This document shows, one piece after another, positions 4,987 to 33,335 of a stretch of DNA of 34,356 nt. The notes below the pieces were generated by a model. That model worked only from the letters and a program-made list of their open reading frames with translations. It had not been told where the DNA came from and made no database searches. Location: the IMG/VR virus record IMGVR_UViG_2684622669_000020; one strand, written 5' to 3'. Source of the DNA: a virus (Duplodnaviria > Heunggongvirae > Uroviricota > Caudoviricetes). The translations under genes were made by a program, and so were the position numbers. Within the stretch, counting starts at the first letter, position 1, and every line of letters starts with the position of its first letter.

Positions 4987-6194
4987 TTCTCCCAGACCTT
5001 AACAATGGCAACCTCTTTTTTCTTTTTGCCCCTGCGGTGATGGCGTTTCTTCTCGCGCGGGAAGGCGTCAGGTATCCACACGCCGTCCTCCTTAAAGCGG
5101 AGCCGGGTTGTCTGCCCGTTGCGGCCTCCGCTGAACTCACGCCCCATCAGAAAAAAGATGGCATCGATGCCGTGGGGTTCGCTGACAATCCGCACACGCT
5201 GGCCGGGCTGCCACAGGACACCGTCCGCCGTGCGATGGCCTGCAACCAGTGCGACGATATCCAGCCCCGACAGGCGGGCATCACTCATCATTTTTTTTGC
5301 GCGCCAGTTCACCTGCTCCATGTTACCGGTGTCGCCCTGGGTGATTATCTGCGGGCGGTAATAATCCACAGTGGGGTCGGTGGCCACGGCTTTCATGTTA
5401 TGAATACCTGTCTGGCCATTGTCAGTATTACCGCCGTCCCGCCCGGATAACGTGCGCACGCTGCCGTCCTCGTTCCAGATATCCAGTGGCACCACGGCCA
5501 GTTGTTTTTTGCTGTCTGCGCGGCGGGCGTGGCTTTGAGCCAGTACCGTAAGTTCGGAGAAGCAGCCGTTAATGGACCGGGTATCGTCCAGCTCCATCAC
5601 GTTGTTCCCGGTGCCGTCCAGCTTCATAATCAGCGTGTCCACTGGCGTGGTGGTGTAGTCAGGGCCACCCACAACCAGCGTCCCGTCAGGCTCAAACCAC
5701 GGCCATAAGCCGCGACCGGCGGCAGCTTTAGCCAGTGCATCCCACGCACGCATCCCCGGCTCTATAACAACCTTGTCATTACGTGACACACCGGACGCCT
5801 GAATACGGATGCGCTGTATCCCCAGCGGTCTGACAATCCTGTCGATGACCTCGTCCAGTGTCAGCTGGTTGGCGCTGAACACCGGCGCGGCACAGTCCAC
5901 CAGGATGGCGGCATCATCACGCCCGGACAGAGTCAGCGTGCAGCTCTGACGGGATACACTGCGGCGCACGCTGTCCACGCGACCACTGAGGACCGTCTCG
6001 TCTCCCACCTGCAAACGGACCGGCGCACCCCGGACGATATCCGCCGGGAACACCTTTTCAGGCAGTCCCAGCTGAAGCTGCCACCCGTCGGCGGCTTTCA
6101 GGAAATCGCTGTCAATACGATAACTGCTCCAGTCAGAATGCGACCTTCCGGCAATGACCAGGCTGATTTTGTCGTCGTTATTTTGCATAGGCAT
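4983..6194 (-). CDS. Tail protein P / baseplate hub (Mu gp44-like)
   Basis: 403-aa ORF in conserved position after the DNA circulation gene; start overlaps upstream stop. Confidence 0.7.
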   Translation of the reverse strand: MPMQNNDDKISLVIAGRSHSDWSSYRIDSDFLKAADGWQLQLGLPEKVFPADIVRGAPVRLQVGDETVLSGRVDSVRRSVSRQSCTLTLSGRDDAAILVDCAAPVFSANQLTLDEVIDRIVRPLGIQRIRIQASGVSRNDKVVIEPGMRAWDALAKAAAGRGLWPWFEPDGTLVVGGPDYTTTPVDTLIMKLDGTGNNVMELDDTRSINGCFSELTVLAQSHARRADSKKQLAVVPLDIWNEDGSVRTLSGRDGGNTDNGQTGIHNMKAVATDPTVDYYRPQIITQGDTGNMEQVNWRAKKMMSDARLSGLDIVALVAGHRTADGVLWQPGQRVRIVSEPHGIDAIFFLMGREFSGGRNGQTTRLRFKEDGVWIPDAFPREKKRHHRRGKKKKEVAIVKVWEK

Positions 6195-7527
6195 TAATTA
6201 CCATCCCGGCGGTTATGTTGTTCGGGTCACGCAGCTGCGGGTTCAGGCGTTGCAGCTCTGCCGCACGGCTGTAGTCCCCGTACCACTGCCACGCCAGCAA
6301 CAGCAGACAGCTGTCCGCCTGCACCTGCTTCTGTGTCAGCGGTGGGCGGCGTGACAGAACCAGCAGGCCGACATCCTGCACGGATGCCGCCACGTTCTTC
6401 ATGCTCTGAATGATTTCCGGGTACATCAGCCCCAGTGGTGATGCGGTTTCGGTTATCCGTTCGCGTTCGCCTTCATAGCGTTCACGGAACAGCGTGATGG
6501 CGGCCTGTAAGCGGGTGCGCACATCCCCGACCAGTCGCCCGATATCCGCCGGTATAAGCTGTTCTGACTGGGCTTCATCGGACAGTATCACCGTCGCCAC
6601 GCTGGCCAGCTCTGAGGCCGCCAGAACCGCATAAGCCGCTTTCACGTCCTGCACGTCTTCCACGGACGCATCCGGCGGAAGTGCCACAGACGGCGTTTTA
6701 TCACCGCTGACCAGTGCGACCGGCAGCGCGACCAGCTCATCCATATCTGCCATCACCTCATTCCAGCAGGTCATCACGGTCGCAGAACTGGCGACGCGGT
6801 TTTCTCCGGTCAGTCCGGTCGTGGTGGCGGAATCAGTACGCTCCAGCACCGGCACCGCGTGCCCGACATCTGACGTGTGGATTTCCAGCACCTCTGCCAG
6901 CCCGCCGATGAACTTTCCGGGTTCGCTGGCCAGTGACATCATATTGTCGATGGATGAGAGAAAATCGCTTTTGAACGTCAGCAGGGTATTTACCAGCGTG
7001 GCACGCACCGCCTGGATTTTTTTAATCACGCTGTTAATGGTCTTTAAAGGGGCCGTAACAGCGTCAAATAATTCGCTTAACTGTGCCAGTAACTTATCCA
7101 GTTCATCAAATAACTGTTGTGCGAACAGCTCCGGTAACGGGGTGCTGAACAACGCGCTGCCGGTGCGGTTCTCCAGAAAACTCATGTCGATGGTGCAGCT
7201 GTCCGGGCTTTCTGCGTCATGGCGGATGCTGTAGCCGGTCACAATCACCGACGGTACGGAGCCATAAACCGGGTGAATCAGCTCACCATCGCCGCCTTCG
7301 TCCAGGGCGGCGATCAGCTTTTCAAGTTTATATTCGTAATACTCCCCCCACAGGAACGCCGTCATGCGAAACGGTCGCGCCTTGCGTCCGAGGTCGTGCA
7401 AATCCGCCCCGTCAACAAACGGGTATTCATAGACCGCATGGTCGCGGCTGATTTGTTCATCCGTGTTCAGTACATCAAACTGCACGCCACGAAAGGAGGC
7501 GTTTTGCAGGTTTTCAGCCCAGCCCAT
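6178..7527 (-). CDS. DNA circulation protein (Mu N / gp43-like)
   Basis: 449 aa; N-terminus MGWAENLQNASFRGVQFDV typical of the Mu DNA circulation N-terminal domain; follows tape measure. Confidence 0.75.
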   Translation of the reverse strand: MGWAENLQNASFRGVQFDVLNTDEQISRDHAVYEYPFVDGADLHDLGRKARPFRMTAFLWGEYYEYKLEKLIAALDEGGDGELIHPVYGSVPSVIVTGYSIRHDAESPDSCTIDMSFLENRTGSALFSTPLPELFAQQLFDELDKLLAQLSELFDAVTAPLKTINSVIKKIQAVRATLVNTLLTFKSDFLSSIDNMMSLASEPGKFIGGLAEVLEIHTSDVGHAVPVLERTDSATTTGLTGENRVASSATVMTCWNEVMADMDELVALPVALVSGDKTPSVALPPDASVEDVQDVKAAYAVLAASELASVATVILSDEAQSEQLIPADIGRLVGDVRTRLQAAITLFRERYEGERERITETASPLGLMYPEIIQSMKNVAASVQDVGLLVLSRRPPLTQKQVQADSCLLLLAWQWYGDYSRAAELQRLNPQLRDPNNITAGMVINAYAK

Positions 7528-9926: not shown

Positions 9927-10310
9927 TTATTCCGTAGCGCCCGAGGATGAGGACTGCGAGCCGGAGTCCGGCGAGCCGGGATTCCCGCCGTTCCGCTTTA
10001 CCTTCAGGACGTTGCGTGATGCCAGCAGAATATTAAAATCGTCCGGCGTCATGTTGTCGTGTAACAGCTCCGCCGTCAGTTCTTCCTGCGGAATATCCCC
10101 CAGACGGACCAGCGTTGCCGCCATCACCGCACAGCGGTAGTAATAATCCGCCGCGAAGCCATCCACCGTCTGAAAGCGTTCTTCAGTTTCTTCCAGTGCC
10201 TGCCCGTTATCACGCATGACCGGCAGACGCAGCTCAAAGTTTTTATGAACGGCGCCGTTAAACACCACGCCATCAGACAGCTCGCCGGTCTGTGTATTAA
10301 TCAAAGTCAT
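9927..10310 (-). CDS. Tail assembly chaperone (Mu gp41-like)
   Basis: 127-aa ORF between tube and tape measure; Ser/Gly-rich acidic C-terminus. Confidence 0.6.
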   Translation of the reverse strand: MTLINTQTGELSDGVVFNGAVHKNFELRLPVMRDNGQALEETEERFQTVDGFAADYYYRCAVMAATLVRLGDIPQEELTAELLHDNMTPDDFNILLASRNVLKVKRNGGNPGSPDSGSQSSSSGATE

Positions 10311-16937: not shown

Positions 16938-18100
16938 GATGCCTCCGGGGTGTCCTGCATAACCCAGTCTGTCAGCACGTCATCCTCAACCGTCGCCACT
17001 GACCAGCGGTCGCCCGACTGTAACGCATACCGCCACGCGTTGCCGTCCTGCGTGACATGCTCCGCCCGTTCGATGGTCTGCTGCATCAGCACATAGTCGG
17101 CGGCGGTCGGGGGCGTGTCTGTTGCACTGAGGCGCTTCATAACGTCAGCCGTAAGGTTTACCGTCTGCCGTGCAGCGCCTGTGGCGGCGACCTGTTCCGG
17201 TGAACGGATGGCCAGCGGATATCGCTGGCGCGCATCCAGTTCGCTGACGTTCGCCAGTCCCCGGGCAAAATCCGGCCCGGTCAGGGTGCCGGTAACATAC
17301 TGGCGGGCGCTGTGGTAATCGTATTTTTCCAGTTCCGGCTGCCATGCCACTTTGCCGGGGTTAAAACCGAAGCCCGGGTCGGCGGTATACACGGAGCCGT
17401 CCGGCATCTTCAGCCCCATTGTTCTGATGGTCTGGCCCGGCTGACCATATTCCTGTTCAACCTCAACCAGTCGCCCATCGCTGCTCTGCACCGTCAGGCC
17501 ATATTTCTCCACATCAGACGCCGAACGCGCCCGGATACGGCAGCGGCATCCGTACCCGTCCGGCGCGTAGAAATACTCCCAGACCGGGTCATCCGCCCGG
17601 GCGGTAAAACCGTTCATGGCGGCGTGTTTCGGGCGGGTGTGAAGGTCCATCACCGCCACGCGCTCAAAATAAGGCCGGTCGGCCACGTTCGCCATCTGTT
17701 GCTGATAACGCCCGGCGTTATATGACGACTGAATGTTGGTATCAAATATCGTGCGCAACCGGCGCGGCGTCAGTTGTCTGCCGTGCAGTTCGCCGGTGTC
17801 CTCGTCCACAATCAGTTTTTTACCCAGCCAGCCTTTTGACTCCAGCAGTGGTTCCAGTTGTGCAGCAAACTCCCGGAACGTCCCGCCGTCAGCCAGTGCC
17901 GCCGTCAGGCCATCACGGATATCCTTCAGCACATCCAGTTTCAGCACGCCCGCCACCGTGAACGCCCGGGCGTTGGCGATGTCCTTCACATCGTGCCAGC
18001 GGAAGCCGATAACGTATCCCTTGCTTTCGAAATACTTAATCGCTTCTTCCGGTTTCAGGGTGTACGCATACCCCAGGTCAACATCGTCAGCTTTCGGCAT
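16934..18100 (-). CDS. Head morphogenesis protein (Mu F-like)
   Basis: 388-aa ORF after the portal gene; contains the CRCR motif region. Confidence 0.75.
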   Translation of the reverse strand: MPKADDVDLGYAYTLKPEEAIKYFESKGYVIGFRWHDVKDIANARAFTVAGVLKLDVLKDIRDGLTAALADGGTFREFAAQLEPLLESKGWLGKKLIVDEDTGELHGRQLTPRRLRTIFDTNIQSSYNAGRYQQQMANVADRPYFERVAVMDLHTRPKHAAMNGFTARADDPVWEYFYAPDGYGCRCRIRARSASDVEKYGLTVQSSDGRLVEVEQEYGQPGQTIRTMGLKMPDGSVYTADPGFGFNPGKVAWQPELEKYDYHSARQYVTGTLTGPDFARGLANVSELDARQRYPLAIRSPEQVAATGAARQTVNLTADVMKRLSATDTPPTAADYVLMQQTIERAEHVTQDGNAWRYALQSGDRWSVATVEDDVLTDWVMQDTPEAS

Positions 18101-19682
18101 TCAGTCGCCCCCAGATATCCGCCACAAAGAATGCCTGTGTCAGCAACTGCCGCAGCGTTTCATCCGGCAGCTCCGGCCATGCTTCCGCCAGTACGTTCAT
18201 GGCCTCGTCTGCATCCCGGCCTTCCTGTATGGCCTGCACCAGTGGGGCCACCAGTTCATTCATCCCCTGCGCGATGGCCTCTGCCGGAAGCTCTGCCCGG
18301 TCGATGGCGCGCTGTGCCGGGTCGTCCTCCCCGTTGTCCTGCTGACTGAGCGCGGCAACATTCAGCCGCTCACGCAGCTGGCTGAGGCCCGCCTGCACAG
18401 GGAGATGCTGTGCCACCGGCACCAGTACCTCTTCGCCGTCTTTCGGGGTGGGGATACCGGTTTTTTTGCGTACCCACGACACAGGGATATCCTTCATCCC
18501 CACATTGTTGACCAGCACGTTGACGGCTTCCGCCACGCCCTTAATGTCGGCTTCCTGCTGCACATCAAACACCAGACGCGGCAGACGGCGTGGCGGGATA
18601 TCCTGCCAGCCGTTCAGGCTGGCCATCATCTGTATCAGGCTGCTGAACATGCCGGACAGCTGGCGAGCATCGGCGGCCAGAATGTCGTGCCGGACCTCGT
18701 TATGCACATTACCCAGCGCATTGGTGGAGGTTTTACCGTCAGCCTGGCTGGTCAGCGTACTGCCCAGAATCACTTTTGAGGTGGTACGCTCCGCCCATTC
18801 CACCATCGACATGAACGCCTCCGGTCCGCCGGAGGCGGCCTCCTTGAATTCAATCTCGTTACCCTGCGGCAGGGCTGCCACCGCTTCATGACCCAGATTG
18901 ACCAGCGCCTCAAGAATGTTGTCCCGGTCCTCGTCACTGGTGCCCTGTGCATAGTAAGCAATGCGCGCCGGAAGGCCGTAAATCTCCAGAAATTCTGCCA
19001 TATCACGCAGCGCAAAGTTTTTGAACAGATACGGCCAGACCAGTACGCGGAACAGGCCGGATGAACCCAGGAACCCCGACCGGGCGTTGTAACGGTGAAC
19101 CAGCCAGCCGAACGGCCACAGCGCGGAGCCGTCTTTACCATCTTCCCCACGATTGCCGTCATCCAGACGGAGTTCGTCATTGTGTTCCGGCAGGGTAATG
19201 AACCAGTTATGCGGGCGCAGCGTCACCGCATCCGGTAACCACGTTTTATCCACGAACGCCCAGCTGATTTCCTGACAACTGAAACCGTAACCGACACTGC
19301 TCATCCCGTTGAGGATGATGTCCTCCATGTCCGGGATACCGTGCAGCCAGTCATCCACGGCGGCGGCCAGCTCCTTTTCTGCCTTCGAGGCATTGCGGGG
19401 CGGCTCCACCGACCAGTCCAGCGTCAGCAATGCTTTTTTGCGCTTTTCCATCTCGGCGAACAGATGGCCATCACGTTCTTCCATATCCGCAAACAGCATC
19501 GCCTGCGCCGGAAGATAACCGCGTTCGGCAGCTTCCAGAATGCGCGGCAGTTTTCTGATGTTCAGGCCACGGGACGGGTGGTCGGGATAAATGCGCAGCC
19601 GTTCCGCCACTCTGACCGACTGCGTGGTTTTGAGAGCCTCACGTTTCAGCGGGCGTCCGTAAATATCAACAAGCTGTGCCAT
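18087..19682 (-). CDS. Portal protein (Mu H / gp29-like)
   Basis: 531-aa ORF, ATG at 19682-19680, 4 nt after the terminase large subunit stop. Confidence 0.8.
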   Translation of the reverse strand: MAQLVDIYGRPLKREALKTTQSVRVAERLRIYPDHPSRGLNIRKLPRILEAAERGYLPAQAMLFADMEERDGHLFAEMEKRKKALLTLDWSVEPPRNASKAEKELAAAVDDWLHGIPDMEDIILNGMSSVGYGFSCQEISWAFVDKTWLPDAVTLRPHNWFITLPEHNDELRLDDGNRGEDGKDGSALWPFGWLVHRYNARSGFLGSSGLFRVLVWPYLFKNFALRDMAEFLEIYGLPARIAYYAQGTSDEDRDNILEALVNLGHEAVAALPQGNEIEFKEAASGGPEAFMSMVEWAERTTSKVILGSTLTSQADGKTSTNALGNVHNEVRHDILAADARQLSGMFSSLIQMMASLNGWQDIPPRRLPRLVFDVQQEADIKGVAEAVNVLVNNVGMKDIPVSWVRKKTGIPTPKDGEEVLVPVAQHLPVQAGLSQLRERLNVAALSQQDNGEDDPAQRAIDRAELPAEAIAQGMNELVAPLVQAIQEGRDADEAMNVLAEAWPELPDETLRQLLTQAFFVADIWGRLNAES

Positions 19683-22105: not shown

Positions 22106-22291
22106 TCAGTTCTGTGATGAACACTGCCGGATGCCGTCAATAATCCGGCAGACCTGCGCCGCCGCGTCAAACAGCTGGCCCGCTCTGTTAATGTCTGTGC
22201 ATCCCACCGGAAGCAACATCACCAGAAACAGGGCCAGAACACAGCGCGCGGCTTTACGTGGCGTTCTGTGTGTCCAGTGCTGACGCGTCAT
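22106..22291 (-). CDS. Small lipoprotein (possible o-spanin-like lysis component)
   Basis: 61 aa with lipobox LLPVGC after a hydrophobic stretch; ATG overlaps the endolysin stop (ATGA). Confidence 0.5.
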   Translation of the reverse strand: MTRQHWTHRTPRKAARCVLALFLVMLLPVGCTDINRAGQLFDAAAQVCRIIDGIRQCSSQN

Positions 22292-22833
22292 ACCGCCACG
22301 CGCTCCTTCAGCCAGCCATAAACAAACGATTCGTTAGCCTCGCGTTTCTCTGCCAGTTCCAGATAGCGGTCACCCTGCGTGCAGTTCAGGGCTGTCAGCA
22401 TCACCCGTTCACCGTCCTGACCGCGATTATTCAGGAAGGCACGCAATGCACTGATGGTACGAGGCCCGATGCGTCCGTCTGCGTCCATATCCGGGTACAG
22501 CCTGCCGCGCAGATTGAACACATTCAGCCAGCGCTGAAGCATTCTGGACGCCACGGTTGGCCCCATATTCACACCGGTATCACACAGCTCTGCGGCAATA
22601 TCAGGGGATAATGCGGCGACCTGGTCAAATCGCGGGCCATACCAGTAATCAGCTTCAAGGATGTCCAGCGCCTGTTCACGGGTTAAATCGCGCATATCGC
22701 CACGGTATCCGTGGGCGCGGGCGACTTTTTCCGTAATGCCCCATTTGGTCGGGCCGCCCTTATCATCCGGGTGATTGACGTAACCGCCTTCTTTGCCCAG
22801 AACTTCATCAAAAATTTCATCTTTTGATTTCAT
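22288..22833 (-). CDS. Endolysin, GH108-type muramidase with peptidoglycan-binding domain
   Basis: N-terminal EGGYVNHPDDKGGPTKWGIT matches the GH108 hallmark as I recall it; no signal peptide or N-terminal TM segment visible. Confidence 0.75.
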   Translation of the reverse strand: MKSKDEIFDEVLGKEGGYVNHPDDKGGPTKWGITEKVARAHGYRGDMRDLTREQALDILEADYWYGPRFDQVAALSPDIAAELCDTGVNMGPTVASRMLQRWLNVFNLRGRLYPDMDADGRIGPRTISALRAFLNNRGQDGERVMLTALNCTQGDRYLELAEKREANESFVYGWLKERVAV

Positions 22834-23980: not shown

Positions 23981-24448
23981 TTAATCAAAAAGCCCCACCT
24001 GGGTGGGGCTTTTCAGCGAAGTCTGTTTTTGTCGTCGGTGTATCAGCTGCCATGCATACCTGTCTGAAATCCCGTAACGGGGACAGAGCAGTGCCAGCGC
24101 CTGCCGGTGTGAGCATCCGTCTTTTACATGCTGCTGTAAATCAGCCATAAAACGGGTGTTACGCAGGGCACGTAACGCATGATCGCAACGGGGAATGTAA
24201 AACGGAGCACCGCCAAGAAAGCGGATCAGTTTGTTGATTTCGTCTTCGGTCAGCACATCATGTAACAGGGCATGGACGCCGCCGGTGCGTTCAGCGTGTG
24301 CGCCGGTTTTACCGCTTAACGTCACGCCACCAAAAGAACGGATTAACCGGGTCAGGGCGGGGAAGCCAATCACGCTAATCAGTTGTTGCACGGAGTCGGG
24401 CAGCAGTGCCTGCGCATCGCGAAGATCTGTTTCACTGAAGGTCTGCAT
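23981..24448 (-). CDS. Mor/C-family transcriptional activator (probable late-gene activator)
   Basis: 155 aa; C-terminal region GGAPFYIPRCDHALRALRNTRF...GISDRYAWQLIHRRQ fits the Mor/C-family DNA-binding region; sits between early genes and the lysis/late block. Confidence 0.75.
   Translation of the reverse strand: MQTFSETDLRDAQALLPDSVQQLISVIGFPALTRLIRSFGGVTLSGKTGAHAERTGGVHALLHDVLTEDEINKLIRFLGGAPFYIPRCDHALRALRNTRFMADLQQHVKDGCSHRQALALLCPRYGISDRYAWQLIHRRQKQTSLKSPTQVGLFD
23992..24013 (-). terminator. Intrinsic terminator overlapping the 3-prime end of the activator gene
   Basis: Minus strand GCCCCACC-ca-GGTGGGGC followed by TTTTTGATTAA; the stem and T-run encode the last residues SPTQVGLFD and the stop. 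Confidence 0.6.
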
Positions 24449-24490: not shown

Positions 24491-24510
24491 ATGATCGCCT
24501 GTACAGACCA

Positions 24511-24536
24511 CAAAAAAGCCCCTGCAAGGCAGAGGC
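24511..24536 (-). terminator. Intrinsic terminator after the GemA-like gene
   Basis: Minus strand GCCTCTGC-ctt-GCAGGGGC (one G-U pair) followed by TTTTTTG, a few nt after the stop at 24544-24546. Confidence 0.55.
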
Positions 24537-24543
24537 TGATTCT

Positions 24544-24957
24544 TTATTGTTTACGTGCTGCTCTGGCTCGTTTTCTGGCGTCTTTTGTCAGCGCCACCAT
24601 CACCCCGAACAGTTGATCATCTGTCAGCCATTCGATCACATGTTGCTTATACATGTGAGATGCCAGTCCTTCCGCATACGCCCAGGAACGACCGGCATCA
24701 GCCAGCAACGCTTCAATTTTGGATAATACTGATTTTCTGCTCATTGCAACACGGGGGCGGCGACCTTGACCGGCGGGTGCCTTGCGCGGAAATCCCTGTT
24801 CGTGCATGTATTCCCGGATGATGCGCAGTTCATCGAGGTTGCAGCGTGTGGTGCTGGTTTTACCGGTCAGGCGGGCCAGCGTCTGGCGATAAAGGACATC
24901 ATCCCACCCCAGATACGCCTGACCGGTTTTAATGGCTCTGATCATCTTTTTCAGCAT
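24544..24957 (-). CDS. gemA: GemA-like early regulatory protein (Mu gp16 family)
   Basis: Start moved to ATG 24957 (GAGGAT upstream); MLKKMIRAIKTGQAYLGWDDVLYRQTLARLTGKTSTTRCNLDELRIIREYMHEQGF matches the GemA-family pattern as I recall it. Confidence 0.65.
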   Translation of the reverse strand: MLKKMIRAIKTGQAYLGWDDVLYRQTLARLTGKTSTTRCNLDELRIIREYMHEQGFPRKAPAGQGRRPRVAMSRKSVLSKIEALLADAGRSWAYAEGLASHMYKQHVIEWLTDDQLFGVMVALTKDARKRARAARKQ

Positions 24958-25243
24958 GTTTGTTATCCTCAAAACGCACGGTAAAACGTGAAACGCCAAT
25001 CCCTGACAGGAACGCAGCGGCACGGTCAAGAGACAGCCACGTCTTGTAATCGCCACGGCGTTCCTGTAGAAAATAGGACACCCCGGCGCGACGATTCACA
25101 GCAAAGAGGTGATACACACCACCGAACCGCTGCACGACGAACTCATCCACGCCACCGCTTTCAGCCTGTTGCCTGAAAGCTGCCATTCCGATTTGTTCAA
25201 TCTTCATAATGACCAAAACATCACTTTTGGCAGACCAAAACAC
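24929..25243 (-). CDS. Hypothetical protein
   Basis: 104-aa ORF; track start is GTG, first ATG is 25207, neither has a clear SD. Confidence 0.4.
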   Translation of the reverse strand: MFWSAKSDVLVIMKIEQIGMAAFRQQAESGGVDEFVVQRFGGVYHLFAVNRRAGVSYFLQERRGDYKTWLSLDRAAAFLSGIGVSRFTVRFEDNKHAEKDDQSH

Positions 25244-25274
25244 ATGTTTTGGTCTGCGTTTGATTACTGTTCAA

Positions 25275-25460
25275 TCAACCCGCGTAATCGGGGCCGTGTT
25301 CCCATCTGGCATCGAGTATTTCCGTTCCATCTGTCCGGCATGGGTTATCAAGTGCCATTTTTCCGCACTCCCCATACTCGACATCGACAAAATCAGCAAT
25401 ATCATTGTCCGTTGCGTTATCAGGAACGTCGATTTCAACCGTTACGGTGATAGTTTTCAT
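25275..25460 (-). CDS. Hypothetical small acidic protein
   Basis: Start moved to ATG 25460 (MKTITVTVEID...) with GGAG upstream; 61 aa. Confidence 0.45.
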   Translation of the reverse strand: MKTITVTVEIDVPDNATDNDIADFVDVEYGECGKMALDNPCRTDGTEILDARWEHGPDYAG

Positions 25461-25501
25461 CAGGTTGTTACTCCGTGATTCAGAAAATTTCATGCCGGGA
25501 C

Positions 25502-25912
25502 TCAGTATGTGAAATAGACAGTTGCCACACCGTTATAGTGGTCAAACGACACAGCGTTTACCTCATAACTGGCCGGGAGCTTCGAGCCAAGAACGTATCC
25601 GGGCCACGTTTTCCATGGAATTTCTCTGCTCTCACTGTCGCCATATACCGTACATCCCAGTGAGCCTACAGCTTCATAAGAACGCTTACCGCACGTTATG
25701 AACCCCAGATGTTGCTTACTGCCCTTAACAGAAATCGGGAGAGCACTGGCTGATGCGTTAGCAGCGTCCCGCTCCTGTTGGCTTGCGATATTCGCAGAGT
25801 TTGCAGCAGCTACAGCAGCTGTGGTCGCAGCGGTAGATGCCACAATAACTGCTGAAGCCTGCGCCTGTTGGGTAATTGTCAGCAATGCCGCCACAAAAAT
25901 CATTTTCTTCAC
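25502..25912 (-). CDS. Secreted protein with signal peptide (moron-like)
   Basis: GTG start at 25912 with AAGGAGGT 6 nt upstream; N-terminus MKKMIFVAALLTITQQAQA-SA is a typical Sec signal; Ala/Thr-rich linker then a two-Cys C-terminal domain. Confidence 0.65.
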   Translation of the reverse strand: MKKMIFVAALLTITQQAQASAVIVASTAATTAAVAAANSANIASQQERDAANASASALPISVKGSKQHLGFITCGKRSYEAVGSLGCTVYGDSESREIPWKTWPGYVLGSKLPASYEVNAVSFDHYNGVATVYFTY

Positions 25913-25924
25913 CTGGCACCTCCT

Positions 25925-26101
25925 TTACATACCGTGATTTTTCCTGCGGTTTTGCGCCGCGCTGGGCTTTTTGCAACAACTGTGCCCCATAACCCCTAAA
26001 AACCCTGTCAACCTCAACCGTCTGTTACTAATCCTCACCCACCGCCAGACATCAAAGCCGTTTCTGCGAGCTAACAGAATTTTTGCCTTACGGTTTTTCA
26101 T
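25925..26101 (-). CDS. Small basic ORF, paralog 1 (MKNRKAK...)
   Basis: 58 codons; ATG overlaps the upstream stop (ATGA); N- and C-termini shared with the adjacent ORF at 26098-26274. Confidence 0.35.
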   Translation of the reverse strand: MKNRKAKILLARRNGFDVWRWVRISNRRLRLTGFLGVMGHSCCKKPSAAQNRRKNHGM

Positions 26102-26274
26102 CGTACTGCGTACCCTTTATTCCGCCTGTTCTGTGACGCAGTAGGCTTACGCTTTGCGGCAAAAGCCACCTGACCAAATGGATGGAGTACCGCTATCTTA
26201 TGGTTGCTAATAACCAGCTCCACCACACGCACAGGTCGCTGTAAAAGAAGGCGTTTTGCTTTACGGTTTTTCAT
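26098..26274 (-). CDS. Small basic ORF, paralog 2 (MKNRKAK...)
   Basis: 58 codons; ATG at 26274, 1 nt after the upstream stop; same start context GATGAAAAACCGTAA(A/G)GCAAAA as paralog 1. Confidence 0.4.
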   Translation of the reverse strand: MKNRKAKRLLLQRPVRVVELVISNHKIAVLHPFGQVAFAAKRKPTASQNRRNKGYAVR

Positions 26275-26275
26275 C

Positions 26276-26467
26276 TCATCCTTCCTCGCTTTTTGCAGTT
26301 TCAAACCACGCATCCTGCCCCACAACATCATCACCACATGGTGGTTCAGATTCTGAATAGCGACCGGCCCACCAGTATTTACCATTACGATGCTTTGCTG
26401 TGCCGCAACGCTGGCATATGAAAATTGACCCATCACGCTGATAATGATGGATGTGCTCGTTACTCAT
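26276..26467 (-). CDS. Hypothetical small protein with Cys motif
   Basis: 63-aa ORF containing CQRCG and a second Cys pair; start overlaps upstream stop. Confidence 0.45.
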   Translation of the reverse strand: MSNEHIHHYQRDGSIFICQRCGTAKHRNGKYWWAGRYSESEPPCGDDVVGQDAWFETAKSEEG

Positions 26468-26688
26468 TGTGCAGCCTCCTGTTTTGCCACTTTAAACGCC
26501 CGTAACATCGGAACCGTTTTACCGGTGATAACGGTTTTCATTAAAAGGCCGCCGCCACTCTGGTGGCGCACTTCAGGAGCAACAAACAGCGCCGCATCCA
26601 CAACCCGACAATAGCGACGGAACTCCCAGAACCAGCAGGTAACAATGATTTTTGCGGTGACTCCGTAGTCATAAAATTCAATATTCAT
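26464..26688 (-). CDS. Hypothetical small protein
   Basis: 74-aa ORF; ATG overlaps upstream stop (ATGA). Confidence 0.45.
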   Translation of the reverse strand: MNIEFYDYGVTAKIIVTCWFWEFRRYCRVVDAALFVAPEVRHQSGGGLLMKTVITGKTVPMLRAFKVAKQEAAQ

Positions 26689-26912
26689 TTGCAGTTAAAC
26701 CTTCTTTTGTGACGTTCTACAGCGGCTTTCATGGCGTTGTGCACGGTTCTTTTAATAATCCGGCGTCCCGCACTGTCATAGAACCGCCACCGGGAAGCCT
26801 CCGGATATTTAGGGAACTCAACCGCCGCGCTACCGTCATTCATCCTGTATTCGTGGCGTTCTCCGGGCGGCTGGTATATTGCTTCGGTAACACTGAGAAG
26901 TTTAAAAGCCAT
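26685..26912 (-). CDS. Hypothetical small protein
   Basis: 75-aa ORF with GGGGAGGG upstream of ATG 26912, 2 nt after the upstream stop. Confidence 0.5.
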   Translation of the reverse strand: MAFKLLSVTEAIYQPPGERHEYRMNDGSAAVEFPKYPEASRWRFYDSAGRRIIKRTVHNAMKAAVERHKRRFNCK

Positions 26913-26914
26913 CG

Positions 26915-27625
26915 TTACACCCTCCCCAGTGCCAGCGGTCTGTTGCTCTGACCATTAACTCCCTGATGCAGCCTGGCGTTTTTTCCGGCGATAAAACCGG
27001 CAGTAGCGGCAAACTCTGCACCCCGGCACGCTTTAGCCGTACGCATATCCCCGTCGCGCAGTCCTTTAGTGCTGTGCAGATTCTTTCTGTAAAGCTCAAG
27101 GCGGCTTTTTTCTTCCGGGGAGACGTCATACACCGCAATGACATCACGGGCACCAAAGACCCAGCCTTCGCAGAACTGGTCGCCACGGGCCACCCGCGTG
27201 GACGGGCCGCAACGTTTGCAGTGTTTATCCTGATATTTCTTGCGCTCTGCCATCATCTGACGGGAAAGCACATCAAACGCGTAAGCCGCGATTTCCGGGC
27301 GGCTGTCAGAGCCATAAAAACGCACGTGACGTTTGAGTGAACCAGAAGCCCGGTACTCACCGGAGATGTAACACTCGACGCCGAAGGCTTTACAGACCAG
27401 GTCACACAGGATGTGCATATAACGCGGCGGCGTACTGGCATCACTCGGCGCACCCGCGCTGGCAGCTTCCTGAATGTCGAACAATTCAGCGTCGTTTTCG
27501 CTGATGCCATGCTGGCGCATATAAGCCTGGGCTTTTGCAATAGCGTTAGCGGCTTCTTCCGGGCTTGATGTTCCTCTGGCAAGGTGTAACAGCTTTTTAA
27601 TTTTGGCGATGTATTTATCTTTCAT
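26915..27625 (-). CDS. DUF2786-like early protein
   Basis: 236 aa; N-terminus MKDKYIAKIKKLLHLARGTSSPEEAANAIAKAQAYMRQHGI matches the DUF2786-type N-terminal signature as I recall it; Cys-rich C-terminus. Confidence 0.6.
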   Translation of the reverse strand: MKDKYIAKIKKLLHLARGTSSPEEAANAIAKAQAYMRQHGISENDAELFDIQEAASAGAPSDASTPPRYMHILCDLVCKAFGVECYISGEYRASGSLKRHVRFYGSDSRPEIAAYAFDVLSRQMMAERKKYQDKHCKRCGPSTRVARGDQFCEGWVFGARDVIAVYDVSPEEKSRLELYRKNLHSTKGLRDGDMRTAKACRGAEFAATAGFIAGKNARLHQGVNGQSNRPLALGRV

Positions 27626-27638
27626 GGTCGTCTGAACC

Positions 27639-27821
27639 TCAGCATCCTGAATTCTGAATTACGCAACTTCCGGCACGGCCTTCAGGAACGTGGGGAGTTC
27701 GTTCTGGCTGCGGCGCTGGATGATCATCTGCTGTCGATTGAGAACTGGTCGCAAGACGATTAAAACAAACGATTGTCAGATTAATTTCGCGGGAGAATTT
27801 TTTTTGCTTAGCGATATTCAT
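27639..27821 (-). CDS. Possible small ORF in AT-rich spacer
   Basis: 60 codons with GAGGAAG upstream of ATG 27821; low-complexity sequence, so uncertain. Confidence 0.3.
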   Translation of the reverse strand: MNIAKQKKFSREINLTIVCFNRLATSSQSTADDHPAPQPERTPHVPEGRAGSCVIQNSGC

Positions 27822-27875
27822 AAATAAACTTCCTCAGAATCAGGCGCAGACCTGTTTACCTGCGCCATAAAAAAA

Positions 27876-28274
27876 TCAGAAATCAGAATCGAAATCGAAA
27901 ACGTCAGTTAATTCCCGCTTCAGTGAAACGCGCTCAGAATAAAAGCCATTGCTCTCACTGCACCATCTGACGGTCACACAGCCTTTTGATGTACCGAACT
28001 TAAAGAAACTCCATGTCTGATGACCTTCCCCGACATCACATTCTTCTGTAACCACTTCAGCCTCTGTTAGCGGTTCGCCTTGCAGGTCGTCAAGGTTTCC
28101 GACGATGTCCTCAATCCAGACTTTTTCGCAGCAGTCCTGAAAGTGAAAAAACGTAAACACGGTCCCCCATACTCCGCAGGAATAATCACCACGAAAAACA
28201 AGTTCATCGTTTTCATTCTTAAATACTTCTTTAAATGTACGCCCAAGCATTTCATTGATAACGGTAACGCTCAT
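27876..28274 (-). CDS. Acidic hypothetical protein (moron-like)
   Basis: 132 aa, GGAGAA SD; about 26 Asp/Glu versus about 10 Lys/Arg by eye; AT-rich gene flanked by AT-rich spacers with hairpins. Confidence 0.6.
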   Translation of the reverse strand: MSVTVINEMLGRTFKEVFKNENDELVFRGDYSCGVWGTVFTFFHFQDCCEKVWIEDIVGNLDDLQGEPLTEAEVVTEECDVGEGHQTWSFFKFGTSKGCVTVRWCSESNGFYSERVSLKRELTDVFDFDSDF

Positions 28275-28354
28275 TTCTGTTTCTCCAGATTCAGGCGTAA
28301 GCCAGCCCCGACGGGTTTACGCCTGTTTTAAATAACAATTAAAAACAAATTAAA

Positions 28355-28546
28355 TTAATGCGGTGCTTTCAGTGTTTCGACTTTAACGAAATAAGGCTCG
28401 ACATTAATTTCAACCACACAACCACATTTAAAATCTCTGGCAGGTGAAACGGTTTTCACCACACGACCACCACGCAACGCCGGATGTGCAGTGTGCATGA
28501 AGCGAGTCCCTACTGGATACTGCTTATTAAAGTTCTTCGCATTCAT
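28355..28546 (-). CDS. Hypothetical small protein
   Basis: 63-aa ORF with GGAGG upstream of ATG 28546. Confidence 0.5.
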   Translation of the reverse strand: MNAKNFNKQYPVGTRFMHTAHPALRGGRVVKTVSPARDFKCGCVVEINVEPYFVKVETLKAPH

Positions 28547-28761: not shown

Positions 28762-29406
28762 TTAAACTCCTGCAATATCCAGCGGGATTGCGCGGTATTC
28801 ATCAGAATCACCGACGCGCTCATACACGCGGATATAGCTTCTGCTGCCAACCACCTGGACGGCTTCACCAATCAGTTTCATGGCGTTATCCCAGCGTTCC
28901 TCCGTAATATCGAGACGACGCAGAGCCAGAACGCGCCCGGTGTTAATGTTGCCTTCCTTGTCCGTGCTGAATGCCTCACTGATGATGGCTTTAATTTCAG
29001 GGCGCGCTCCTTCCGTCCAGTCAGCCAGGCAGTCATCAATCAGTGCCTTCGCGGTCTGAATGCGTTCATCAAGCGCGATACGGTCCTGCATAGCGCGCTG
29101 AATCTTGTAACGCCCGTCAAAGCTGTAAAGCGTGATATTGCCTTTTTTGCCGCCTTTCACAGCGCCGTATTTCTCCGCCGACAGGTCAATAAACGCCTGA
29201 ATATCACCAAACGCACGCAGTTTCAGTTCACGCAGTGAGGCAGAGGCAGCAATCACCATCTCCACAAGCTCACCGACCAGCTGCTCACGGTCGCGGTCAA
29301 TATCTTTGATAAGGCTTTCAGGTGTCATTACGCCACGGGCATCCACCCAGTAACCTTCAGGCGCTTGAGTTTTCGTGTATTGCTTAACTTTATTTTCAGT
29401 CGTCAT
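28762..29406 (-). CDS. Conserved Mu-like early-region protein (possibly DUF3164 family)
   Basis: 214-aa ORF with GAGGTAAT SD upstream of ATG 29406; no similarity to Mu Gam as I recall it. Confidence 0.6.
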   Translation of the reverse strand: MTTENKVKQYTKTQAPEGYWVDARGVMTPESLIKDIDRDREQLVGELVEMVIAASASLRELKLRAFGDIQAFIDLSAEKYGAVKGGKKGNITLYSFDGRYKIQRAMQDRIALDERIQTAKALIDDCLADWTEGARPEIKAIISEAFSTDKEGNINTGRVLALRRLDITEERWDNAMKLIGEAVQVVGSRSYIRVYERVGDSDEYRAIPLDIAGV

Positions 29407-30109: not shown

Positions 30110-30349
30110 TTATTGCCATACGACGGTGCAGCCGTCGATACAGGACGTTTTAACCACGCGGCGCAGGCCGCTGAATCTCTGGATGATTTCCGTTACCGGC
30201 CATACAGGACCCCCCACGGGCGGGCAGGCATAAACCACAGGTAAACGGTGATGCTGTCCCGTTACACGGCCACCGGTGGTGTGGATGGCCACACGGGCAC
30301 GGGAACGGACGGCGTTAATGGTCTGCTTGTCCATCGTCTTGTTCTCCAT
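30110..30349 (-). CDS. Hypothetical small protein downstream of B
   Basis: 79-aa ORF; ATG overlaps the B stop (ATGA). Confidence 0.45.
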   Translation of the reverse strand: MENKTMDKQTINAVRSRARVAIHTTGGRVTGQHHRLPVVYACPPVGGPVWPVTEIIQRFSGLRRVVKTSCIDGCTVVWQ

Positions 30350-31242
30350 CAGTGAATTAACATTTCTGCGAAATCATCAATAGCCTGCACACTGACCGGC
30401 GCATCGCTGATATCACAAATCCGGTAGACCCCACGCACAAGTTTAAACAGGCGTCGGGCATTGCCCCGTGAGCGTGTGTAAAGTGCTTCACAGATTTCAG
30501 GCGCTGCTGCTTCCGGCATCAGTTCGGCGGCTATCTGGATGAAATCCTTCTGCGCCAGCGTATCGCCGAGGTCCAGCGAAAGAGCCACCCGACTGTATAG
30601 CTGCGCGAACTCCCCACGATTGCCTTTAAGATTAATCAACAGGCGCGGCATACCAGCCAGGGCAACACCGACGCCCGCCTTGTCATGCAGACGACGCAGA
30701 ACTTCCAGCGCACGATAGGGGAGCAGTTCGGCTTCATCCACCATCAGCAGGCGACCGGAGTCACGCAATTCGTGTACGCAGGCATTAATCAGTTCGTGAA
30801 TATTGCCGCGAACCTTTACCCCCAACTGGCGGCACAGTTCCTCCAGCAGTGTCCTGGCTGTATAGCCCGGGTCAGCCTCAATCAGTATTGCGTCCCGGTT
30901 TCTGGCGGCGTATTCGCGCAAAATCATTGTTTTGCCAAGACCTGCCGCGCCATACAACACGCTAATTTCACACTCCAGATGAGCATAGGCCAGCGCCTCC
31001 AGCCCTTTGGCGGCCATACCTGTAGTCACAAAACTTGCTTTTACACGCCGGTTGTTTTCTTTTTCCCGTTCACGGCTGACAAAGGCAGAAATTCGCTCTT
31101 CGATATCAGTGATATCGCCCTGATATTTACCCTGCAAATACTGGTTGATAACGGCGCTGCTACGACCAATAGCACGGGCAACGTGGGTCTGCGTATAGCC
31201 GCGACGGGCCATTACGTCATTTAATTGCGTAATTAAACTCAT
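30349..31242 (-). CDS. B: Transposition ATPase B (MuB-like)
   Basis: 297 aa; N-terminal HTH then Walker A GAAGLGKT and D-E motif MVDEAE; directly downstream of the transposase. Confidence 0.85.
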   Translation of the reverse strand: MSLITQLNDVMARRGYTQTHVARAIGRSSAVINQYLQGKYQGDITDIEERISAFVSREREKENNRRVKASFVTTGMAAKGLEALAYAHLECEISVLYGAAGLGKTMILREYAARNRDAILIEADPGYTARTLLEELCRQLGVKVRGNIHELINACVHELRDSGRLLMVDEAELLPYRALEVLRRLHDKAGVGVALAGMPRLLINLKGNRGEFAQLYSRVALSLDLGDTLAQKDFIQIAAELMPEAAAPEICEALYTRSRGNARRLFKLVRGVYRICDISDAPVSVQAIDDFAEMLIH

Positions 31243-31259: not shown

Positions 31260-33335
31260 TTAACGGTTGTTTGTGCCGTCTTTCTTTAAATTGCGGTCAC
31301 GCTCGGATGCAAAGAAATAAAGTTCTTCTTTTTTCTTTTCCTCCTTACGCTCCAGACCAAATCCAAAATTAAAGTCAGGTCTCTGCGTAATAGCCGGGGT
31401 AAGCTCGCGTTTAGCCTCTTCGATTTTCTGCGTGGCCCGTGCAATGCGGCCTCTGGCGCGTTTCTCCTGCTGCTGTTCGATAACAGCTTTCGGGAACGCA
31501 TCAACCTTATTACCGTTCCAGATGGCATCGCAGATATAAGAACCGTCCATCCGCCTGACAATCACGCTGTTTGCGTCGTGAATGTCGTAACAAACCCTGA
31601 CTTCATTTCCGTGCTCTGCTGCCAGTTCTGTGGAGAAATAGATGTTTCTGAATAACACCACTTCACCGCGTCGCACCGTGCAGATGCTTTCCGGTCGGAA
31701 CATTTCATGCAGTTCTTCCGGCGACAGCATGTCGATTTCAGCCTTTTGCTCTTTTATCAGTTTCCGGCGATACGCTGCCGGGCTGTAATGTTCGCCATCC
31801 TCTTTGCGGGGAAGGCTGCTGTGTGGCCGGTTGTTATACCGTTTCACCTCCAGCTCTATTGCGGCCATCAGTTGCTCAAAAGTGGGGACTTCTCCCATCG
31901 CTTTAACCTGCCGCTTTGTCAGCTCTTTCCCTTTGTGGGTGGCCTTAATGGCTGACTGTGTGATGCGTTGCTGCATCATCACCGTTTCCTTGTCTGCATT
32001 TTTTGAGCAGTACGTCTGGAAACTCAGGGCCACATCTTTGGGTATTCCTTTGTTTGCCCGTTCTATTACCCCGCGCCCCTGCGGGTTACCAGGTATCCCC
32101 GTGTGATGCTCCACACCCAGCCGGGGCAGAATCCCGGTAATATCGGCATCAAGCACCCGGTTTTTTTCACCGCCCCCGTTATCGGAGTAATAAATCAGCG
32201 GTATTCCGTGTTGTGACATGCCATGACGCAATGCATCAGCAACGGCTATCACGTTCTCCGACAGGGACAGCGACCAGCCCACAATAAAGCGTTGCCCCGC
32301 ATCCATAACCAGCGTCACTTCTGGCCGGAATGTATTCCCGGTGGCAGGGTTGAATGCCATCAGTTTCATACAGTGACCATCCCCGACCCATACCGCATTA
32401 ACCGGTAATGTGCTCCAGTCGCGCCGCACAAAGGGATTGAGCGAACGCCAGGCTGAGCCGGTGGAGCGGAAACGCTCCTTAACAATCACCGGGACGTTGC
32501 TTAACACCCGTCTTACTGCGTGAACTGAAGGCAGTGCTGCCAGCATTCCCGCATCGTTCGCGTGTTTTTCATGCCACCAGGCTGAAAACTCGCGATACGC
32601 ATATTCAACGGTCGGGCGCTTCCATGAGCGATAGAACATAAAGAAATCGCTCAACCACCAGACCTGCTCCCACGGTGTTCCCTTATGATGACCGGGAGCC
32701 AGTAACGCCAGTAACTGATTGGCATCACCGCGCGCCATCAGCCAGGCGGAATACCATTCCTGTAAACTCCCTGTACTGACGCCAGTTCGCTTACCCTGTC
32801 GGGCATTGGCGGTATTACCGGCCACAATAACGCGCTCGGGCAAAGCCCCCTGGCGGATACCATCAACGATGTGTTTTATCGCTGCTGTCCTGGACATTCC
32901 TGCGTATTCACGCAGTTTATGCACTTCGGTAGCCAGCAATATCCGCGCATCAGCGATGGCCTTTTGCTTGTCGGTCAGTGCCTGAACTTCGCGTAATGCC
33001 AGTTCCGGGCATTTGACCATCACTTCCAGTTCATCGCGAATGGTGACGTTCTTAACTGCCTTCTGCTCAACCACGGCGGGCAGTTGCGCATCTTCCAGAA
33101 CCTGATGGGTCAGGCGTTGACGTAAAACCTTCTGAACATCTTTAGGTAAACTGGATATATGGTACTCATATATTTTCCCCTGAACTCCAGACTTCCTTCT
33201 TCTTGTCCAGTTCGCTCGTTTAGCTTTTTGAGTGATCCCCTGTACAGTTTTCGGTAGCCCTTGAAGCCCTGTTAGTTCATTCAACGTAAACCATTCAGGT
33301 TCGAACTTGACTTCATAGTCGTTGTTCTTATTCAT
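31260..33335 (-). CDS. A: DDE transposase (MuA-like)
   Basis: 691 aa; N-terminal domain resembles the repressor N-terminus (LxGLxGLPxTxQGIxQKAKRxxW); central integrase-like catalytic region; followed by B. Confidence 0.9.
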   Translation of the reverse strand: MNKNNDYEVKFEPEWFTLNELTGLQGLPKTVQGITQKAKRANWTRRRKSGVQGKIYEYHISSLPKDVQKVLRQRLTHQVLEDAQLPAVVEQKAVKNVTIRDELEVMVKCPELALREVQALTDKQKAIADARILLATEVHKLREYAGMSRTAAIKHIVDGIRQGALPERVIVAGNTANARQGKRTGVSTGSLQEWYSAWLMARGDANQLLALLAPGHHKGTPWEQVWWLSDFFMFYRSWKRPTVEYAYREFSAWWHEKHANDAGMLAALPSVHAVRRVLSNVPVIVKERFRSTGSAWRSLNPFVRRDWSTLPVNAVWVGDGHCMKLMAFNPATGNTFRPEVTLVMDAGQRFIVGWSLSLSENVIAVADALRHGMSQHGIPLIYYSDNGGGEKNRVLDADITGILPRLGVEHHTGIPGNPQGRGVIERANKGIPKDVALSFQTYCSKNADKETVMMQQRITQSAIKATHKGKELTKRQVKAMGEVPTFEQLMAAIELEVKRYNNRPHSSLPRKEDGEHYSPAAYRRKLIKEQKAEIDMLSPEELHEMFRPESICTVRRGEVVLFRNIYFSTELAAEHGNEVRVCYDIHDANSVIVRRMDGSYICDAIWNGNKVDAFPKAVIEQQQEKRARGRIARATQKIEEAKRELTPAITQRPDFNFGFGLERKEEKKKEELYFFASERDRNLKKDGTNNR

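Follow-up and report, generated by a model that had tools for sequence, protein, structure and literature searches.

What kind of protein is encoded by the small minus-strand gene at positions 25502–25912 of the tailed-phage record IMGVR_UViG_2684622669_000020 (Caudoviricetes), and in which phase of the phage life cycle is it likely to act? The record comprises 34,356 nucleotides (nt), and this whole stretch is called the window below. A first-pass annotation of the DNA had read the product as a signal-peptide protein of an early prophage region and had suggested a superinfection-exclusion or lysogenic-conversion factor. According to the analysis reported here, the gene most probably encodes an accessory protein that is exported and acts in the lytic cycle. 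The grounds for this view are the coding evidence, the features of the predicted protein, the place of the gene in an early operon, and the distribution of its homologues over unrelated phages.

The open reading frame (ORF) comprises 136 codons (411 nt) between a GTG start (25912–25910) and a TGA stop (25504–25502). The minus-strand sequence around the start, ATGTAAAGGAGGTGCCAGGTGAAGAAAATG, can be written out as ATG TAA AGGAGGT GCCAG GTG AAG AAA ATG. Direct reading of this sequence places the Shine–Dalgarno (SD) element AAGGAGGT at 25925–25918 (minus strand), separated from the GTG by the 5-nt spacer GCCAG, so the strong and well-spaced SD reported earlier at this start is indeed there. A GTG start with an SD-like element at 5–7 nt also precedes the homologues in the phage Av-05, in two T1-like siphophages of ~45 kb and in a lambdoid prophage, ATG being the start codon in the P1-like subfamily. 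The Prokaryotic Genome Annotation Pipeline (PGAP) of RefSeq draws identical boundaries for the coding sequence (WP_053896997.1, “hypothetical protein”) in an Escherichia coli chromosome 99.7% identical to the window over the surrounding kb. The ratio of nonsynonymous to synonymous substitution rates (dN/dS, Nei–Gojobori; window copy versus three homologues) is 0.19–0.37 for the whole gene and 0.09–0.21 for the part encoding the C-terminal domain. Since the start signals recur in the homologues, the annotated boundaries agree and dN/dS is low, 25502–25912 is a real gene under purifying selection and not a chance ORF.

Upstream, the TAA codon (25927–25925) terminating an ORF of 58 amino acids (aa) overlaps the SD element; hence, the 58-aa ORF and the 136-codon gene are probably translationally coupled. 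A separate observation concerns the E. coli proteins P0051 and P0055 (117 aa), which are frameshifted: their sequence departs after residue ~95 into EKFHGKRGPD..., and the conserved C-terminal half of the domain is lost. In the few genomes concerned, they are probably pseudogenes or the result of sequencing errors.

The N-terminus of the predicted protein, MKKMIFVAALLTITQQAQA (residues 1–19; 25856–25912, minus strand), followed by SAV, has the layout of a signal peptide recognized by the Sec pathway and signal peptidase I (SPase I). The n-region MKK contains two lysines, the 10-residue h-region MIFVAALLTI has a mean Kyte–Doolittle (KD) hydropathy of 2.84, and the stretch TQQAQA before Ser20 supplies A-x-A at −3/−1, with cleavage predicted after AQA (Ala19). 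The signal peptide was called from such rules, by which the window protein qualifies as a Sec/SPase I substrate, and from family conservation. The tripartite layout (positive n-region, h-region, A-x-A-type site) recurs in 35 of 35 diverse family members, all of which keep A-x-A, and this agrees with the classical Sec signal of the earlier reading. A hydrophobic x-V-I-(V/T) motif is conserved across the family at the predicted mature N-terminus. Public records contain similar hints: the depositors of a Klebsiella phage homologue noted a “transmembrane domain and a signal peptide domain”, and one UniRef cluster is named “Prophage exported protein”. From these features we infer Sec export, cleavage after Ala19 and a periplasmic location of the product.

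A different topology, in which the N-terminus stays uncleaved (or is lipid-modified in the P1-like subfamily) and the domain is tethered to the membrane instead of being free in the periplasm, is improbable. It could draw on the segment behind the predicted cleavage site, SAVIVASTAATTAAVAAA, which is moderately hydrophobic (19-residue KD mean up to 1.65), and on the AlphaFold model, where residues 5–53 are drawn as a single long helix, at low confidence. It could also draw on the lipobox-like LSAC or LSSC of some P1-like members. These hints are opposed by the conservation of A-x-A after a classical h-region in all members and by the siphophage homologues, which do without the hydrophobic Ala/Thr stretch. 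As for lipidation, a test for SPase II substrates detected no lipobox [LVI][ASTVI][GAS]C in the window protein, where no Cys precedes residue 74. In the P1-like subfamily (~47–60% identity; loci L005–L008, gene at 6001–6405), the signal peptide ends in ...AMLSAC/LSSC HLSHA; the LSAC/LSSC motif is present in only part of the subfamily, and its Cys is replaced by Ser (LSAS) in sister sequences. Because of this motif, part of the P1-like subfamily could be lipid-anchored.

Behind the signal peptide, the protein is built as the first-pass annotation had it, with an Ala/Thr-rich linker and a two-Cys domain. The linker (residues 20–65; 25718–25855, minus strand) is rich in Ala, Thr, Ser, Asn and Gln, with about 42% Ala plus Thr, Ser and Asn over about residues 20–57. 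Its length and sequence vary in the family; it is largely missing or much shorter in the siphophage homologues, and the full-length AlphaFold model assigns it a low confidence (predicted local distance difference test, pLDDT, 54–74). The conserved C-terminal domain (residues 66–136; 25505–25717, minus strand), delimited by the family alignments, is modelled by AlphaFold on its own with a mean pLDDT of 91.6 and the topology b-b-b-b-a-b-b. It is hallmarked by the motifs GF(I/V)TCG, SLGC, IP(W/Y)xx(W/Y)PGYxLG, SYxV(T/N), (F/Y)DxYN and AT(V/I)YFxY. Cys74 (25691–25693) and Cys87 (25652–25654), which bracket a variable beta-hairpin, are invariant in 35 sequences; such an invariant pair in a protein predicted to be exported suggests a Cys74–Cys87 disulfide formed in the periplasm. 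Among 48 close relatives, variability is concentrated in the linker (highest at residues 44–68), at the tip of the hairpin (residue 79) and over residues 92–96, the helix and the last two strands (the C-terminal hairpin) being nearly invariant. The hairpin tip and the 92–96 loop are, therefore, obvious candidates for a fast-evolving contact surface. The C-terminus (...YFxY-COOH) was also considered as an outer-membrane-protein-like beta-signal or a DegS-activating tail; both roles are unlikely, and the idea was rejected, since in several members the C-terminus is prolonged by charged residues (TEKK, TERRQ, R) and the strand itself belongs to the folded sheet.

The protein belongs to PHROG 8805, a family of unknown function, with a full-length match (E 5.4e-83; residues 1–136 versus profile positions 1–136), and 29 of 29 domain sequences of the family alignment match this PHROG and no other. 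In Pfam (E up to 10), NCBIfam and PADLOC, no match was found for the protein or the 29 domain sequences. Sequence searches of the PDB with full-length and domain-only profiles gave chance matches only (E about 1). Structure comparison with the PDB and BFVD yielded no significant neighbour outside the family, BFVD returning a family member alone. The PDB matches in this comparison included four structures of DUF1471, an Enterobacteriaceae-specific periplasmic family, none of them significant: 2m2j (3.9), 2jna (3.8), 4evu (3.8) and 2ma8 (3.0). The DUF1471 fold consists of a four-stranded sheet (order 2-4-3-1) with one long packed helix; it is RcsF-like and normally without cysteines (PMC4092069). 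For a direct comparison, eight E. coli DUF1471 domains were used, each verified against PF07338 (E 4e-13 to 8e-23). hhalign gave the family alignment a probability of 0.7% against this set, with the last hairpin alone aligned. Membership in DUF1471/YdgH_BhsA-like (PF07338) was thus rejected on sequence, given this value and the lack of a Pfam match. Any resemblance of the domain to the DUF1471/YhcN family (BhsA, YahO, SrfN, YdgH; PF07338) and the RcsF-like fold would be a weak one of fold, with no sequence relation; the most suitable description is an orphan alpha+beta domain, whose architecture may at most be distantly similar to that of DUF1471/RcsF-type domains.

Searches for further relatives depict a narrow family. 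A word-indexed search of 5.8 billion proteins returned about 115 clusters, called hypothetical, and all named clusters come from Escherichia, Shigella, Salmonella, Citrobacter, Cronobacter, Rahnella or coliphages. When 1.84 billion representatives were searched exhaustively with a HMMER profile, 15 matches were obtained, about 11 of them true family clusters (50% identity). The family was thus found only in phages of Enterobacteriaceae and is very small (about 11 clusters). Two of the other hits of the family profile, the eukaryotic BRCA2-like proteins P0118 and P0120 (898 and 1662 aa; E 1e-11 to 1e-18), were rejected as spurious: their BRC repeats, “NIGFIKCGSKESVG” and “NIGFIKCGSKESVGISKSAMDKAK”, imitate the GF(I/V)TCG motif by repetition, and such matches are a trap for automated annotation. 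No paper on the family, its accessions or exported proteins of Mu-like phages was found in the literature.

The genomic position of the gene bears on when it would act. The window is a Mu-like transposable prophage. Pfam and PGAP place the Mu transposase (HTH_Tnp_Mu_1, Mu-transpos_C) at 31260–33335 and a MuB-like AAA ATPase (AAA_22) at 30349–31242, the two with which the early operon opens; downstream of the gene in the same operon lies a GemA (Mu gp16) homologue at 24544–25056 (PF06252, E 6.5e-18), and a Mor-family transcription activator at 23981–24448 (PF08765, E 1.1e-6) marks the end of the early region; all of them are on the minus strand. With these Mu-type genes around it, the gene belongs to the semi-essential part of the early operon; it is on the same strand as GemA and Mor and precedes them by a few genes, so the early prophage location given by the first reading is correct. 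RefSeq annotation of a near-identical prophage (L004), where PGAP also calls Mor, agrees with the Pfam gene assignments, and the order MuA/MuB, gene, GemA, Mor is shared by the window with L004, L009 and L073. In Mu lysogens, the repressor keeps the early promoter silent; therefore, the default expectation, by analogy with Mu, would be that the gene is expressed only after induction or infection.

The distribution of the homologues extends this picture beyond Mu. Five types of carriers were recognized, and the homologues lie in early regions in all of them. The first comprises Mu-like prophages, including a divergent lineage represented by L073 (Logan contig SRR24146909_48394), where a 42%-identical member (1619–1972) stands in the same slot, after a gene with a Gp11_C domain and before GemA and Mor; this equivalent position points to an old association of the family with Mu-like early regions. 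In the lambdoid-type prophage of strain VR50, the gene is downstream of replication genes; in P1-like phage-plasmids of 85–96 kb (66 plasmids), it is near hot, humD and phd-doc. The remaining carriers are Av-05, a virulent myovirus of Vequintavirinae, and the T1-like siphophages of ~45 kb (KW1E_UTAR, KLB16), where the gene follows a cytosine methyltransferase gene and three small ORFs stand between it and the terminase gene. Among complete E. coli genomes, the gene was detected in 69 of 5426 (about 1.3%), in 47 chromosomal and 24 plasmid copies, always in a prophage or a phage-plasmid.

In all 68 loci analysed together, the gene is co-oriented with its neighbours, and in half of them (34/68) it is inserted between mosaic coiled-coil genes, with a 4-nt overlap on both sides where checked. 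The flanking coiled-coil genes are of very variable length (90–271 aa), and some are called “Ead/Ea22-like” by Pfam or PGAP; their cluster includes the gene downstream of the Av-05 copy. These mosaic genes are the only recurrent neighbours, no neighbour or partner gene being conserved across the phage types in the 68 loci, and no Ead/Ea22-like gene is found within 4 kb of the window copy. DNA similarity between the window and Av-05 ends at the borders of the gene. Given this gene-bounded similarity, the varied contexts and the lack of a conserved neighbour, the gene behaves as a single-gene cassette recombining between the early regions of Mu-like, lambdoid, P1-like, Vequintavirinae and T1-like phages. 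PMC10834534 presents the genes of the Ead/Ea22 region as early-transcribed accessory genes. Many loci of the family resemble the accessory genes of the lambda exo-xis/Ead-Ea22 region in being embedded in such arrays, often with 4-nt overlaps on both sides, but the latter have no sequence relationship to the gene, and the abstracts dealing with them give no hint of Ea22 export.

If these features are combined, the following course of events can be proposed. The gene would be transcribed within the long early (lytic) operon of the Mu-like prophage and translated from its strong SD and GTG; the Sec pathway would export the product, and SPase I would cut it after AQA19. This would release a periplasmic protein of ~12 kDa, consisting of a flexible Ala/Thr-rich tether and a compact alpha+beta domain of ~70 residues, probably stapled by the Cys74–Cys87 disulfide. 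In the infected cell, the protein may bind an envelope or periplasmic component common to enterobacteria, with the hairpin tip (residue 79) and the 92–96 loop as the putative contact surface. Such binding could protect the infected cell, e.g., by blocking the entry of superinfecting phages in the periplasm once they have adsorbed, in the manner of T4 Sp, Imm and P1 Sim.

The roles known for early Sec-exported coliphage proteins fall into two groups, namely superinfection exclusion (T4 Sp, Imm, T5 Llp, Cor, P1 Sim) and the control of lysis (T4 RI). Based on these roles, superinfection exclusion may be ranked first, followed by an effect on a host envelope component, then by lysis timing and finally by lysogenic conversion. 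Even the first of them, a periplasmic factor guarding the infected cell from incoming phages after their adsorption, is a tentative proposal. The functional suggestion of the first-pass annotation is half tenable: exclusion in the course of lytic growth is possible, with no finding that supports it, and lysogenic conversion is disfavoured. The closest parallels among phage proteins are T4 Spackle (Sp) and P1 Sim, which are exported by the Sec pathway and block superinfection after adsorption. Both are small, with a cleavable N-terminal signal and a periplasmic action (features that are predicted for the protein considered here), and both are encoded by single genes outside structural modules, Sp being expressed early in lytic infection. 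Parallels also exist with T5 Llp and with Cor of T1, phi80 and N15, the exclusion lipoproteins that block FhuA: these are small and exported, Llp has a disulfide, and their carriers are both virulent and temperate. In contrast to the window protein, Llp and Cor are lipoproteins with a lipobox Cys; their genes adjoin receptor-binding or tail-fibre genes, whereas the KW1E_UTAR homologue stands before the terminase gene and not after a J-like gene; and the carriers of PHROG 8805 share no single receptor.

Several points weigh against an exported protein that acts in exclusion during lytic growth. Receptors and injection machines differ among the carrier phages, which makes a receptor-specific block unlikely, and, unlike cor and llp, the gene does not adjoin receptor-binding genes. 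No sequence or structural homology to the exclusion proteins Cor, Llp, Sp, Imm, Sim and SieA was found. The moderately hydrophobic stretch after the predicted cleavage site is compatible with a membrane-associated form, and the promoter scan behind the operon argument (see below) was a simple sigma-70 consensus search, which weak or non-canonical promoters could escape.

A periplasmic effector that manipulates or disarms a host envelope component (a periplasmic protease or nuclease, a sensor of envelope stress or an antiphage defence located in the envelope) for counter-defence or host takeover in lytic growth is only slightly less plausible than exclusion, and thus likewise speculative. Unrelated phage types with different receptors and one host family are easier to reconcile with a conserved target in the host than with one specific to a phage, and the limitation of the family to phages of Enterobacteriaceae speaks in the same direction. 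In addition, the variable hairpin, bracketed by the putative disulfide, resembles an inhibitor loop. On the other side, no target was identified, the hhalign comparison lends no support to a kinship with the periplasmic DUF1471 proteins, and the motifs of the family are absent from the supplementary data of two phage accessory-gene screens, so that no member is represented there.

The two foregoing possibilities can be merged into a broader and more daring proposal, for which the odds are somewhat longer still. PHROG 8805 might constitute a new class of phage effectors that are targeted to the periplasm, have their own fold and are exchanged, as a single-gene cassette, between temperate and virulent enterobacterial phages. 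It would act in lytic growth on an enterobacteria-specific envelope component, either by a general post-adsorption block of DNA entry or by inhibiting a host defence or stress sensor of the envelope, the variable hairpin bracketed by the putative disulfide setting its specificity.

A role in lysis, i.e., periplasmic modulation of the endolysin, holin or spanin or shielding of the peptidoglycan from lysis from without, up to the programmed moment of lysis, is unlikely. T4 RI and Sp provide a precedent: both are exported proteins of the early phase, with the holin and the gp5 lysozyme, respectively, as targets; the protein in question is likewise predicted to be periplasmic and made before the late genes, and in the Mu-like and T1-like phages its gene is at the distal end of the early block, near lysis or late genes. 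The carriers possess, however, unrelated lysis cassettes: GH108 and two holins in the window, a T4-type lysozyme in place of GH108 in the Mu-like phage L073, and another set of holin and endolysin in KW1E_UTAR; none of the lysis genes is conserved along with the family.

Equally doubtful is a factor made by the resident prophage that would alter the surface or the phage sensitivity of the lysogen, by lysogenic conversion or by superinfection exclusion. Many exclusion and surface proteins of prophages are small and exported (Cor, Sim, Bor), and an exported prophage protein with a strong SD, found always in prophages or phage-plasmids among the E. coli genomes, would be in keeping with them. The operon structure argues otherwise. 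The gene lies in the middle of a Mu-type early unit of the kind silenced by the repressor in lysogens, and in many loci its start codon overlaps the upstream stop. A sigma-70 consensus scan of the minus strand (24506–28400) revealed no promoter-like site upstream of the gene, and there is no terminator-like hairpin directly 3' of it; hence, the gene does not appear as a moron, an autonomous unit with its own promoter and terminator, with the proviso that weak promoters could escape such a scan. Furthermore, homologues reside in phages without a lysogeny module (Av-05 and the T1-like KW1E_UTAR and KLB16); among the T1-like carriers, the integrase was checked for in KW1E_UTAR, where none is annotated. 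Taken together, the place in the operon, the missing promoter-like site and these homologues make lysogenic conversion unlikely and favour a role in lytic development.

A structural or assembly protein of the virion is scarcely credible: the PHROG matches to tail proteins are weak (E 0.16 and 1.4) and cover only the low-complexity Ala/Thr linker, so the homology to a known structural protein that would have contradicted the first reading did not materialize; moreover, the gene lies in early regions and never within the morphogenesis modules inspected, and virion proteins of tailed phages would not be expected to carry a Sec signal peptide.

The family has been catalogued already, as PHROG 8805 and as RefSeq hypothetical proteins, and is uncharacterised; the gene encodes an ordinary but genuine phage accessory protein. 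Few periplasm-acting phage proteins have been characterised, and Sp, Imm, Llp, Cor, Sim and RI each revealed a distinct step of entry or of lysis control. Being conserved, apparently exported and present in five unrelated phage types with only the host family in common, the protein is an inexpensive and well-defined candidate through which a further phage–phage or phage–host interaction at the envelope might be found; as such, it is modestly interesting and not surprising. The practical value lies in a corrected annotation: an early protein with predicted export, and not a lysogenic-conversion factor.

According to Pfam, proteins of the DUF3164 (28762–29406), DUF7448 (27876–28274) and DUF2786/DUF7168 (26915–27625) types are encoded on the minus strand between the MuB-like gene and the gene studied here, and a GH108 endolysin (22288–22833) and a Mu-type portal (18087–19682) are encoded elsewhere in the window, likewise on the minus strand. 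Comparison of positions 10000–34356 with 50,697 sequenced phage records revealed no close relative, only short mosaic matches with ≤2% coverage each; near-identical prophages occur in several E. coli chromosomes.

Transcription signals were encountered at the end of the early region. A terminator-like hairpin (24537–24517, minus strand) directly follows GemA, and a promoter-like site, TGTACA-16-TATAAT (24505–24478), the only minus-strand site found, directly precedes Mor, both being consensus matches; hence, in this phage Mor may possess transcription signals of its own. The gap between the next ORF and the 72-aa ORF that lies downstream of the gene contains a perfect palindrome with a 12-bp stem, GCAGACCAAAAC-ACAT-GTTTTGGTCTGC (25230–25257), with no T-run after it on the coding strand. 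A gap of 250 bp (27626–27875) separates the DUF7448 and DUF2786 genes; no consensus promoter is present there in the window copy, and in related prophages PGAP annotates a small opposite-strand gene at this gap (L004, 12518–12778; L009, 4742–4960).

Finally, the upstream 58-aa ORF (25925–26101, minus strand), taken from the ORF list and annotated by PGAP in L004, belongs to the same operon and is not conserved together with the gene in the other phage types. It is a paralogue of the C-terminal half of the neighbouring 112-aa ORF (26098–26436, minus strand): both start with MKNRKAK.LL..R and contain ...SQNRR. Segments of P1-like phages, RCS47 and Stx2c phages match the DNA at 25934–26275 with about 88% identity, and near the Av-05 homologue there is an ORF of weak similarity.

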